This document shows, piece by piece, positions 10,967 to 20,792 of a DNA stretch of 46,221 nucleotides. The DNA is taken from the UHGV virus genome UHGV-0126501. One strand, given 5' to 3'. The notes under the pieces are model-generated. The model ran no database searches and was not told the origin of the DNA. It saw only the letters and a program-made list of their open reading frames with translations. Both the position numbers and the translations under genes were made by a program. Position 1 is the stretch's first letter; each line of letters begins with the position of its first letter. The stretch is from a virus.

Positions 10967-11332
10967 ATGGCACTGACGAAAAAACAACGTGCAGAACTGC
11001 GCATGAAGTTCGGTGGTCGCTGCGCTTATTGCGGCTGCGAACTTGGCGAAAAGTGGCATGCAGATCATGTAAAACCGGTCATTCGTTTTGATGGAAATAT
11101 GCTTCACCAGGATCGTGACGATATATCCAACATGGTTCCGGCATGCCACCCATGCAATCTGCACAAGCATTGCAGTAGCCTGGAAGATTATCGGCGAATT
11201 ATCAGTGATGGTCGTCGTGAATTCCTTGCGTCCGGGAAAGGCAAAGCGCTGGTTCGTATGGGATTGGTTGAAATGAAATCTGACCCGGTTGTGTTCTGGT
11301 TTGAAAAATATCAAGAAGGGGCTACGGCATGA
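10967..11332 (+). CDS. HNH endonuclease
   Basis: C-x2-C ... HADH ... C-x2-C-NLHKH pattern (CAYCGCELGEKWHADHVKP...PACHPCNLHKH); ATG preceded by AAGGA. Confidence 0.8.
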   Translation: MALTKKQRAELRMKFGGRCAYCGCELGEKWHADHVKPVIRFDGNMLHQDRDDISNMVPACHPCNLHKHCSSLEDYRRIISDGRREFLASGKGKALVRMGLVEMKSDPVVFWFEKYQEGATA

Positions 11333-12333
11333 CCACTTTTACCAATAGCAAACTAACAGACGAATACGTTTCAAATGCAACGTTGATTCGGCTCATTCTG
11401 TGGGCTGACCAGCACAATAGTCATTATGTTGCAGCGGCTCTGCGCGAGCTACAGGAGCGCCGCAAGGCTGATAGTGTGTCTGTAGAAATCAACGACGACA
11501 TGGCTTACGCATTCCATCACGCATTGTCAGATTCATCGCCAGGCGCTGATGAAGTAGAGGAAATTAAGGCCGGTTTGCGTGCTGCCTTTGCCAACGTCAC
11601 CACCCAACCAGCACCAGTAGTGCCGGAATTTGAAACATGGTTTAACAGCCAGGAGTCAGGGAGGAGTATATGCAGCACACAGATTCGTCGTTCCCTTCAG
11701 GAAATTTCATGGAACGCCTGCTGCGCCGCCATGCTTCAGTGTGTCGAACCTGCAAGTAATCATGAAGAGTTGTCAGAGGAGAACGGATCATCGCTTCAAT
11801 TGCGCAATTTAATCCGGCAGCGCCATGCTGAATGGTCAGATAAGACGTTTGGCTGTGTTGGTCCAGTTGGCCCGCTGAAACATCTCTCAAAAGAGGCACT
11901 GGAAGCCGCAGCCGAACCAGACGATCTTAGCGAGTGGGCTGATATGCAGTTTCTGTTGTGGGATGCACAGCGCCGTGCTGGCATCAGCGATGCTGAAATT
12001 ACCGCTGCTATGGAAGATAAATTGAAGATCAACATGGAGTGCCAGTGGCCTGAGCCAAAAGATGGTGAACCTCGCTTGCACATTAAAGAACACTGCAACT
12101 CTCCGGTAACTCCGGATGGTTGGATAAGCTGTAGTGATGCAGTTCCTGCTGAATATTGCGATGTGATTCTTCTCGATGATCTCGGGAATGTATTCCCCGG
12201 TTCCTGGGATAAGGTTTTTTGCCCCACTCGTGGCGGGAATAAGATGGCTTTTGTGGACAAAGACGGCGTCGAAGTAGAGAGCTCAACTCACTGGATGCCG
12301 CTACCGGAACCACCGCAGGAGGTGAATCAATGA
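11329..12333 (+). CDS. DUF550/DUF551-type protein (MazG-like dNTP pyrophosphohydrolase-like N-terminal part, DUF551 C-terminal part)
   Basis: Recalled family signatures: ...RQRHAEWSDKTFG... and C-terminal ...DGWISCSDAVPAEYCDVILLDDLGNVF...; common in lambdoid nin/ea regions. Confidence 0.5.
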   Translation: MTTFTNSKLTDEYVSNATLIRLILWADQHNSHYVAAALRELQERRKADSVSVEINDDMAYAFHHALSDSSPGADEVEEIKAGLRAAFANVTTQPAPVVPEFETWFNSQESGRSICSTQIRRSLQEISWNACCAAMLQCVEPASNHEELSEENGSSLQLRNLIRQRHAEWSDKTFGCVGPVGPLKHLSKEALEAAAEPDDLSEWADMQFLLWDAQRRAGISDAEITAAMEDKLKINMECQWPEPKDGEPRLHIKEHCNSPVTPDGWISCSDAVPAEYCDVILLDDLGNVFPGSWDKVFCPTRGGNKMAFVDKDGVEVESSTHWMPLPEPPQEVNQ

Positions 12334-12413
12334 CCTGGCCTGAAGCATTCACCACGGTAGGAATTGCGATGGCGGTGGCGCTGGTGGTGTATTCGATTTG
12401 CCGCTGGGGATAA
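12330..12413 (+). CDS. 27-aa hydrophobic peptide (MTWPEAFTTVGIAMAVALVVYSICRWG)
   Basis: ATG overlaps the upstream stop (ATGA); single TM-like segment; followed by an intrinsic terminator. Below the ORF-track length cutoff. Confidence 0.3.
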   Translation: MTWPEAFTTVGIAMAVALVVYSICRWG

Positions 12414-12421
12414 CAAACAAA

Positions 12422-12450
12422 AACCCCGGATTGATGGTCCGGGGTTTTTG
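12422..12450 (+). terminator. Rho-independent terminator
   Basis: CCCCGGA...TCCGGGG stem followed by TTTTT. Confidence 0.75.
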
Positions 12451-12730
12451 AAGGAAACAAAACAGAAACAACAATTGCCGTTATCTGTTGTTACCATGGC
12501 AAGTAAACGTATCTCAGGCGAGCGCATTGCGCCGTTCTGACGCAGATAAACTAGCCTGGATAGATGGTGCTGGCAATAAAAAATAGCGTTTTCTTATCGG
12601 TGTCGGTAAGATTGCTGCGGGTGCTTGAGGCTGTCTGCCTCGGGCATGCCACTGTAAGGCAGACAGAGAAAAGCCCCAGTTAACATTACGCGTCTTGCAG
12701 GACGCTTAACATTAATCTGAGGCCCAATCT

Positions 12731-12943
12731 ATGCCATACAAACATAGGTTAGCCTCTTACGTGCCGAAAGGCAAGGAGAAGCAGGCTATGAAGCAGCAAA
12801 AGGCGATGTTAATCGCCCTGATCGTCATCTGTTTAACCGTCATAGTGACGGCACTGGTAACGAGGAAAGATCTCTGCGAGGTACGAATCCGAACCGGCCA
12901 GACGGAGGTTGCTGTTTTCGTGGACTACGAATCTGAGAAGTAA
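12731..12943 (+). CDS. Mok-like in-frame N-terminal extension of Hok (modulator of killing)
   Basis: Upstream in-frame ATG gives a 70-aa product, analogous to chromosomal MokC/HokC where Mok is an N-terminally extended Hok. Confidence 0.45.
   Translation: MPYKHRLASYVPKGKEKQAMKQQKAMLIALIVICLTVIVTALVTRKDLCEVRIRTGQTEVAVFVDYESEK
12788..12943 (+). CDS. hok: Hok/Gef-family type I toxin (small membrane peptide)
   Basis: MKQQKAMLIALIVICLTVIVTALVTRKDLCEVRIRTGQTEVAVF... matches the Hok/Gef signature (TM helix, LTRKxLCE, periplasmic tail); SD AAGGAGAAG. Confidence 0.9.
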   Translation: MKQQKAMLIALIVICLTVIVTALVTRKDLCEVRIRTGQTEVAVFVDYESEK

Positions 12944-13011
12944 GAGTGACCAGGCGGGAGAGTAATCTCCCGCCACCTCTGATGTGTCGGCATCCTCAAC
13001 GCACCCGCACT

Positions 13012-13036
13012 TAACCCGCTTCGGCGGGTTTTTTCA
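13012..13036 (+). terminator. Rho-independent terminator (ACCCGC-TTCG-GCGGGT + T6)
   Basis: GC stem with UUCG tetraloop and T-run; 3' end of the hok transcript; identical element repeated at 13853-13876. Confidence 0.8.
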
Positions 13037-13154: not shown

Positions 13155-13334
13155 ATGAGCTACGCACTAAAAAAACACCCGCGATTGACTATTCCCCCTC
13201 GCGATAAAAGCGTTGTGGCAGCTCCGCGCCCGGCTATTGATGAAAATTGCACACATCGTGAGCAGGTGAAAAATGCTTTCGATTTCGGTTTTTCTCGTTA
13301 CGAGAAGGCAATGGAAGAACTTTCAAAAGTGTAA
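13155..13334 (+). CDS. Small ORF upstream of doc; candidate antitoxin
   Basis: 59-aa ORF (MSYALKKHPRLTIPPRDKSV...EELSKV) ending 18 nt before the Doc start; by position only. Below the ORF-track length cutoff. Confidence 0.35.
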   Translation: MSYALKKHPRLTIPPRDKSVVAAPRPAIDENCTHREQVKNAFDFGFSRYEKAMEELSKV

Positions 13335-13352
13335 TAATGGGTATTGTGCTCT

Positions 13353-13838
13353 ATGGCTGAGATTGTTGAAGGAGTGCACTATCTTTCGGTTGATGATCTT
13401 ACTGAAATCAATCGCCTTTTAATTGAGCTTCAAACACCAGATGAACCTGTAGGTGTGCTGAGTGTTGATAATTTAAGTTCTTCTCAGGCCCGTCCCAGCA
13501 TGGTTCGATGGTATGAACAGACTAATGACATGTTTGTACTGGCATCGGTATTGATTGAAAGTCTGATTCAGAATCATCCGTTTGCTAATGCGAACAAACG
13601 AACAGCTATGATGGCTGGTTACGTCTTCTTGTTGTTGAATGGCTATGAGTTAACAGCACCAGGCGATGAAATCGTGGAAATGGCAGAGGGACTGGCCTGC
13701 AAAACCTATACTCGAGAAGATCTCGAGAACTGGTTGTGTTATTGGTCTCGTGCGTATGACAGTCGGGAATTATGTAAAACAGGCGCAACTATTGTTTTGT
13801 ATGAAACTATCAAGCTTAAAATAGAACAGCAAAACTAA
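13353..13838 (+). CDS. Doc (death-on-curing) / Fic-family toxin
   Basis: Doc-type Fic motif HPFANANKRTA (H-x-F-x-[DN]-[AG]-N-K-R). Confidence 0.8.
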   Translation: MAEIVEGVHYLSVDDLTEINRLLIELQTPDEPVGVLSVDNLSSSQARPSMVRWYEQTNDMFVLASVLIESLIQNHPFANANKRTAMMAGYVFLLLNGYELTAPGDEIVEMAEGLACKTYTREDLENWLCYWSRAYDSRELCKTGATIVLYETIKLKIEQQN

Positions 13839-20715: not shown

Positions 20716-20792
20716 GCGGGTATCGTATAATGGCTATTACCTCAGCTTTCCAGGCTGATGATGTGGGTTCGATTCCCGTCACCCGCTCTCCA
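20716..20792 (+). tRNA. tRNA-Gly(UCC)-like element, probably degenerate
   Basis: Cloverleaf can be drawn: acceptor GCGGGTA, D-arm with GG, anticodon stem TCAGC/GCTGA with loop TTTCCAG (anticodon TCC), T-loop GGTTCGATTCC. But A7-C66 mismatch, two G-U pairs in the T-stem, and a TCTCCA 3' end instead of CCA. Confidence 0.45.

Follow-up and report, generated by a model that had tools for sequence, protein, structure and literature searches.

A very probably complete hok/mok/sok type I toxin–antitoxin module in the early-right region of a lambdoid prophage

Introduction

The hok family of toxin genes, the pairing between the two ends of its mRNA and the covariation of that pairing were described in the 1990s. 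In the plasmid R1 system (hok/sok, or parB), the hok RNA adopts distinct states during its life: the nascent RNA forms a metastable hairpin that holds the tac element, the full-length RNA pairs tac with fbi while ucb sequesters the mok SD, and the 3'-processed RNA pairs tac with ucb and the mok SD with dcb, a box that overlaps the −10 region of Sok (PMC9841398, Le Rhun et al.). A second well-described system is hokW-mokW-sokW of phage 933W and Sakai prophage 5 (Sp5). Takada et al. 2021 (PMC8621323) showed that HokW is toxic and that sokW, when expressed under its own promoter, neutralizes it. [quoted passage not shown]

Here we describe a related locus in a 46,221-nucleotide viral genome, UHGV-0126501, referred to in its full length as the window. 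Positions 12600-13036 very likely hold a complete hok/mok/sok type I toxin–antitoxin module of the hokD/hokW clade, located in the early-right region of a lambdoid prophage. Modules of this type are already known and very common, and the locus is an ordinary one for its family. That the prophage carries a complete and probably active module rather than a relic nevertheless bears on predictions of prophage stability, on induced-lysis behavior and on the toxicity to be met when the region is cloned. The locus is also a worked example of how sequence by itself suffices to recover the three RNA states of the hok paradigm.

Identity of the locus and its homologs

The Rfam model RF01794, named 'sok' and covering the sok/hok leader, matches the window at 12619-12793 on the plus strand with 117.2 bits (gathering score 59) and over its full length (model positions 1-157 of 157). 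Taking this plus-strand match for Sok itself was considered and rejected. The alignment follows the hok mRNA leader in the sense direction, beginning at tac and reaching the hok ATG, and therefore does not place Sok. Related DNA is found in 4707 of the 5426 complete E. coli genomes, where it is mostly annotated hokD, and in 78 phage records, among them 933W and VT2-Sakai (Sp5), whose copies are annotated mokW/hokW/sokW.

Elements of the hok/sok paradigm are found in the paradigm order and on both strands (Table 1). They run from the hok −10 box through tac, its metastable partner, the stable 5' hairpin, ucb and the mok SD to the mok ATG, and from the Sok promoter and Sok stem-loop (minus strand) through dcb, the hok SD, the hok ORF, a post-stop stem-loop and fbi to the terminator.

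Table 1 Elements of the hok/mok/sok locus, in window coordinates, with the observations on which each placement rests
Element	Position	Strand	Sequence, pairing and basis
hok promoter −10 box (probable)	12607..12612	+	TAAGAT; inferred from conserved spacing
Full-length hok mRNA (predicted, about 415 nt)	12619..13033	+	Start of the RF01794 match at 12619; terminator; fold
tac (translational activator element)	12619..12630	+	GGGUGCUUGAGG; pairs with fbi, ucb or the metastable partner, depending on the RNA state
Metastable partner of tac	12637..12647	+	GCCUCGGGCAU; fold of the nascent RNA
Stable 5' hairpin	12631..12667	+	10-bp stem, CTGTCTGCCT (12631-12640) with AGGCAGACAG (12658-12667); folds, repeat finder I1
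ucb (upstream complementary box)	12671..12677	+	AAGCCCC; mok anti-SD; pairs with the mok SD (full-length RNA) or tac (trimmed RNA)
mok SD	12719..12722	+	GAGG; 8 nt before the mok ATG; invariant in 38 loci
mok ORF, 70 aa	12731..12943	+	In frame with hok, common stop codon; layout as in annotated mokW
Sok promoter (putative)	12746..12774	−	−35 TTGCCT (12774-12769), 17-nt spacer, −10 TAACCT (12751-12746); read from the sequence
Sok antisense RNA (predicted, about 71 nt)	12669..12739	−	Coordinates transferred by alignment from annotated sokW of 933W
dcb (downstream complementary box)	12752..12756	+	GCCUC; partner of the mok SD (12719-12723) in the fold of the 3'-trimmed RNA
hok SD	12773..12779	+	AAGGAGA; 8 nt before the hok ATG; conserved in the alignment
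hok ORF, 51 aa, Hok/Gef membrane toxin	12788..12943	+	PF01848; 51/51 identical to HokW of 933W
Post-stop GC-rich stem-loop	12953..12974	+	GGCGGGAGA/TCTCCCGCC; folds, repeat finder I8
fbi (fold-back inhibitory element)	12994..13006	+	CCUCAACGCACCC, bulged C13000; sequence, folds, repeat finder I7/I9
Intrinsic terminator	13013..13034	+	AACCCGC-TTCG-GCGGGTT and T run; sequence, fold

Homologs for comparative analysis were collected in a scan of one genome per species, which gave 47 loci, distributed over Escherichia, Shigella, Kluyvera, Photorhabdus, Pantoea, Citrobacter and Erwinia. These yielded 34 distinct mRNA regions of full length, which were aligned with the window and three separately obtained loci to give the 38 sequences of the comparative alignment (A2). 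These 38 loci span six genera (Escherichia, Kluyvera, Photorhabdus, Pantoea, Erwinia and Citrobacter).

A few records carry labels at odds with enterobacterial origin. Two hok sequences with 91-100% protein identity (L015 and L023) lie on contigs of only 275-431 bp assigned to Acinetobacter idrijaensis and Xanthomonas pisi, and the best phage match (H31) is labeled 'Actinobacillus phage vB_Apl-pPE4'. All three look like contamination or mislabeled enterobacterial phage DNA.

Comparison with described systems

The closest of the described systems is hokW-mokW-sokW of 933W/Sp5 (AF125520; PMC8621323), whose carrier in 933W is likewise a lambdoid prophage. Its toxin is identical to the window Hok at all 51 residues, the locus is 92% identical over 406 nt, and mokW shows the same in-frame layout as the window mok. 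The Sok promoter, hok SD, tac, ucb, dcb and fbi are all identical between the two. The 31 differences cluster in the loop of the 5' hairpin and in the Sok 5' tail/target loop at 12724-12744; those in the latter segment change Mok residues 2-5, the only residues at which Mok and MokW differ (PYKH in the window, LNTC in 933W). Within the 5' hairpin, a compensatory change is seen, with G12633/C12664 in the window and A/U in 933W. Homology to 933W ends at about 13011, and a canonical terminator follows fbi only in the window. At the corresponding place in 933W (L002:1895-1960 against window 13010-13036), the terminator hairpin is replaced by unrelated sequence. Since the hairpin is absent in 933W/Sp5, the 3' end of the validated hokW mRNA must be formed differently from that of the window allele.

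The R1 system shares the tac/fbi end-pairing, the ucb/dcb switch, the metastable 5' hairpin and an overlapping mok, and its Sok is a cis-antisense RNA with a 5' tail and a hairpin, as predicted for the window Sok. However, R1 Hok is only distantly similar (44% identity to HokW; PMC8621323), mok of the window is in frame with hok, and the window module is carried by a prophage rather than a plasmid.

Chromosomal hokC (gef)/sokC of Escherichia (L016-L024) encodes a toxin that is 78-80% identical to the window Hok. Its leader is alignable and its tac is the same, but its Sok stem is shorter than that of the window, and its fbi variant, UCUUCAAC, gives a weaker duplex of −17.1 kcal/mol. In the K-12-like hokC copy (L016), fbi has been lost. 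Relative to both the hokC-type leaders and the Rfam consensus, the window Sok stem contains an extra insertion of about 19 nt.

The hokD (relF) gene of the Qin prophage in E. coli K-12 belongs to the same toxin clade, and most of the homologs are named 'HokD' in RefSeq. The 3' half of this copy (about 12774 to 13033) is about 93% identical to the window (H26-H29), but K-12 hokD is a relic without tac, the 5' hairpins, ucb, the mok start and sok, all of which the window has.

Reading frames and integrity of the locus

An earlier note, made from the sequence, had described a hok ORF with an in-frame mok-like extension, and this description holds: the hok ATG at 12788 lies in frame inside 12731-12943. 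An in-frame ATG 57 nt upstream of hok is found in 24 of the 38 aligned loci, the window included. Pfam HOK_GEF (PF01848) matches residues 6-47 of the window Hok with 81.1 bits (cutoff 22). By analogy with the identical HokW and its sokW (PMC8621323), the window Hok is probably toxic and neutralized by Sok.

Many chromosomal copies of hok are defective, and care must be taken to ask whether the present locus could be another decayed, non-functional relic that shares only similarity with working modules, like the hok copies of E. coli K-12. Such decay takes several forms among the relatives. The K-12-type hokD copies (H26-H29; L009, L011 and L039) align with the query only from its position 215 (window 12774) onward; they are thus without tac, ucb, the mok start and sok and lack everything upstream of that position. 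Elsewhere, tac has been lost (L008) or fbi has been lost (L016), and codon 4 of hok is a stop in L001 of E. coli AH19B041, the copy with the most similar flanks. None of the lesions of K-12 hokD, L008, L016 or L001 is present in the window copy, both of its ORFs are open, and its Hok has the same sequence as a toxin of demonstrated activity. Its RNA elements and its two promoters all agree with those of functional relatives. We consider it very improbable that the locus is a relic; the view of the earlier note that it looks regulatorily intact is supported by the same open frames, RNA elements and promoters.

The AH19B041 copy (L001:6229-6240, NZ_CP196316.1) can also be described in its own right. 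It is 94% identical across the 501-nt query, its stop is a TAA, and it retains tac, fbi, the Sok promoter and the terminator, so that the toxin is inactivated while the RNA elements are intact.

Pairing of the mRNA ends

The central structural claim of the earlier note was a long-range complementarity between a 5' segment and a 3' segment just upstream of the terminator. The two segments are as it gave them, 12616-12630 (TGCGGGTGCTTGAGG) and 12994-13009 (CCTCAACGCACCCGCA), and they form 15 bp with a single bulge, C13000, ahead of the terminator at 13013-13034. The paired blocks are 12616-12624 with 13001-13009 and 12625-12630 with 12994-12999. An independent repeat finder recovers the two halves of this end helix as the pairs I7 (9 nt, 100% complementary) and I9 (9 nt, 89%).

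Inverted repeats of 9 nt are common, and the repeat finder gives ten pairs in 600 bp; a chance repeat with no structural role could therefore be proposed. Thermodynamic and comparative evidence both speak strongly against it. The tac/fbi duplex has an energy of −19.8 kcal/mol, far more stable than the −10.7 +/- 2.6 kcal/mol obtained with shuffled fbi, and only 8 of 2000 shuffles reach it. RNA folding, which had been proposed as a check, places the 5'-3' helix as the closing helix of the MFE structure of the 421-nt RNA (−175.6 kcal/mol, against −132.6 +/- 6.0 for shuffled sequences; z = −7.1), and the tac/fbi pairing appears in both the MFE and the centroid folds. The duplex is retained in all 38 full-length homologs, with energies of −15 to −24 kcal/mol. 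Using the 38-sequence alignment, RNAalifold predicts the 5'-3' helix unaided (columns 4-9 with 407-412), including a pair with a compensatory U-A to C-G change, and the helix corresponds to the tac/fbi stem described for R1 (PMC9841398). A chance origin of the complementarity is, in our judgment, hardly conceivable.

Covariation had been suggested as a further check on the long-range pairing, and the homologs provide it, as the helix is kept and one pair changes in a compensatory manner. Columns 4-6, 8 and 9 of tac are invariant in the 38 loci, and column 7 covaries with fbi: the pair 7:409 is UA in 24 loci, CG in 11, UG in 2 and CA in 1. Most tac/fbi pairs are invariant, so the covariation rests mainly on this one pair together with register-shifted changes in the distal half. 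The one variable tac position, column 7, is also the position that is bulged in the tac/ucb stem, as expected of an element that must fit three partners.

In a count with fixed columns, only 83% of the whole tac/fbi helix is paired across the 38 loci, a figure lowered by loci of Photorhabdus, Pantoea and some Erwinia that are without the bulged C and have their pairs shifted by one column. The fixed-column count was therefore replaced by a register-free test in which cognate and non-cognate tac/fbi duplex energies were compared. Cognate duplexes average −20.2 kcal/mol and non-cognate ones −18.6 kcal/mol, and the observed mean was reached in 0 of 5000 permutations.

The extent of the pairing needs some revision. 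Conservation covers 12619-12630 with 12994-13006, and the three outer pairs of the helix probably lie outside the RNA. Inclusion of these pairs (12616-12618/13007-13009) in tac/fbi was rejected, as they are not conserved and are located upstream of the likely transcription start. At two of the three outer positions, 21 of the 38 homologs are unpaired.

Across the full-length structure, 90.6% of alignment cells in the 38 loci are paired, whereas sliding the partners lowers this to 43-48%. Changes on both sides of a pair affect 83 cells of the full-length structure, against 30 +/- 4 in shuffles; owing to the phylogenetic relatedness of the aligned sequences, the shuffle counts exaggerate significance and are to be read as supportive rather than as strict probabilities.

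The 5' hairpins and alternative RNA states

The earlier note had placed a hairpin with a 10-bp stem at about 12632-12670. The hairpin is real, with its arms at 12631-12640 and 12658-12667. Its helix is 92% paired in the 38 loci, and its pair 18:51 is AU in 23, UA in 6, GU in 5 and GC in 3.

In addition to this stable hairpin, a 32-nt nascent RNA is predicted to fold into a metastable hairpin (12621-12631/12637-12647) of −20.7 kcal/mol (z = −4.8). In the 38 loci, 95.7% of its cells are paired, compared with 26-54% for slid partners, and 2 pairs are changed on both sides. MFE folding already favors tac/ucb once ucb has been transcribed, which makes the persistence of the metastable hairpin a kinetic assumption.

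Folding of the full-length RNA (12619-13033; z = −6.2) gives the tac/fbi helix together with pairing of GAGG (12719) to ucb (12671-12677). In the 3'-trimmed RNA (12619-12993), tac pairs instead with ucb (GGG.GCUU/AAGCCCC), and the mok SD pairs with dcb (GAGGC at 12719-12723 with GCCUC at 12752-12756). The latter pairing encloses a hairpin whose loop and stem contain the mok AUG and the target of the Sok tail. As likewise described for R1 (PMC9841398), dcb overlaps the −10 region of Sok. All of these pairings are maintained in the 38 loci: the SD/ucb helix, 95% paired, has 4 pairs in which both partners change, the tac/ucb stem is 99.6% paired and invariant, and the mok-SD/dcb pairs are invariant. 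Each of the three states described for R1 hok RNA is matched by a predicted fold of window sequences.

Probable promoter and 3' end of the hok mRNA

The start of the hok mRNA can be placed by comparison. In all aligned homologs, a TAnnnT hexamer (for instance TAGAAT, TACAAT, TATAAT, TATATT or TAGTAT) is found at an equal distance upstream of a conserved CGGG, and this conserved spacing puts the transcription start near G12619. Upstream of the window hexamer TAAGAT (12607-12612), no good −35 box is present. A scan for consensus promoters and terminators missed the terminator at 13013-13034 as well as both the hok and the sok promoter. Neither promoter conforms to consensus, which is equally true of validated relatives, and the terminator was probably missed due to its stem absorbing two T's of the tail.

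At the 3' end, the post-stop stem-loop is 97% paired in the 38 loci, with 3 pairs changed on both sides, and by analogy with the R1 model is likely to act as a barrier to 3' trimming. The terminator is common to several homologs and is absent in 933W. It is placed such that loss of about 40 nt from the 3' end, a processing step that we infer, would remove the terminator and fbi together.

The predicted Sok antisense RNA

A search for an antisense promoter on the minus strand around 12760-12830 had been proposed. A candidate was found, but its position is 12746-12774 rather than the proposed interval. Downstream of its −10 hexamer TAACCT, the minus strand has a G at 12739. In the alignment, the promoter stretch is identical to the sokW promoter of 933W, and primer YO-421 allows the deduction that TAACCT is the −10 hexamer that was changed in the promoter-less sokW construct (PMC8621323). 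The RNA predicted at 12739 to 12669 from the transferred sokW coordinates folds into a shape typical of Sok, with a single-stranded 5' tail, a long hairpin and a U-rich tail (−29.6 kcal/mol; z = −4.4).

The segment at 12724-12744, which encodes the 5' tail of Sok together with the loop that it targets, is far more variable among prophage alleles than the regulatory elements on either side. Over alignment A2 columns 113-136, mean identity among prophage alleles is 67%, compared with 90-100% for the flanking elements, and the window allele differs from sokW at 8 positions. It is possible, if on balance rather doubtful, that this segment is the fastest-evolving functional part among the prophage alleles and that the window allele represents a distinct specificity type whose Sok would not cross-neutralize co-resident hok copies such as hokW. 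If true, this would let several hok/sok modules act independently in poly-lysogens. The differences from SokW in the 5' tail could also alter the kinetics of pairing; the antisense, being encoded in cis, keeps perfect complementarity to its own target.

Proposed mechanism and role in the prophage

The mechanism shown for R1 hok/sok, and in part for hokW/sokW, can be carried over to the window locus by analogy. A weak promoter would drive synthesis of a stable mRNA running from 12619 to about 13033 (about 415 nt), with tac held in the metastable hairpin while transcription proceeds. Once the 3' end is completed, tac would pair with fbi and ucb would sequester the mok SD, leaving a full-length RNA that is neither translated nor bound by Sok. 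Slow trimming of the 3' end would then release tac to pair with ucb, and the mok SD and start would refold with dcb to form the Sok target hairpin. As long as it is supplied, the short, unstable Sok (12739 to 12669, minus strand) would pair with this target, block translation of mok and the coupled translation of hok, and trigger cleavage by RNase III. When the supply stops, through loss or induction of the prophage, Mok and Hok would be made and Hok would damage the inner membrane.

By analogy with related modules, the locus is likely to help the induced prophage lyse its host and release phage, which is the role demonstrated for Sp5, or to act in addiction or exclusion. [quoted passage not shown] When hokW-sokW was deleted from Sp5, growth arrest in response to mitomycin C came later and phage release fell by half, and SokW RNA disappeared on induction (PMC8621323); exclusion of T4 by R1 hok/sok is cited in the same study. 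The position of the window locus, in the early-right region between replication-side genes and lysis genes, is consistent with such a role. However, the Sp5 effect is modest, at about two-fold. This view is quite credible, though we stop just short of calling it probable, and it concerns the biological role only, leaving the identity and molecular mechanism of the module as described above.

Genomic neighborhood

The gene context of the hok locus is that of a lambdoid prophage. No complete E. coli genome contains at least 80% of the 3-kb neighborhood in one place, which marks the phage as a mosaic. Upstream, on the plus strand, the gene at 11329-12333 encodes a 334-aa protein with dATP/dGTP pyrophosphohydrolase (PF04447) and DUF551 domains. 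Its stop codon is overlapped by a small ORF at 12330-12413 encoding a hydrophobic 27-aa peptide, MTWPEAFTTVGIAMAVALVVYSICRWG. Primer YO-432 of the Sp5 study contains the start of this small ORF, which shows that hokW has the ORF upstream as well. After the small ORF, 12418-12450 forms a strong bidirectional terminator-like hairpin with a 13-bp stem.

Directly downstream of hok, a second toxin–antitoxin-like pair is found at 13155-13838 on the plus strand. It consists of a 59-aa ORF without a Pfam match (13155-13334) and a 164-aa protein of the Fic/DOC family (13344-13838; PF02661, 46 bits), an E. coli homolog of which is annotated 'type II toxin-antitoxin system death-on-curing family toxin'. 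The tandem of hok and Doc recurs in many E. coli prophages. Further along the window, a phage-borne tRNA-Gly (anticodon TCC) is encoded at 20716-20788 on the plus strand, as identified by both the Rfam tRNA model (49.7 bits) and ARAGORN.
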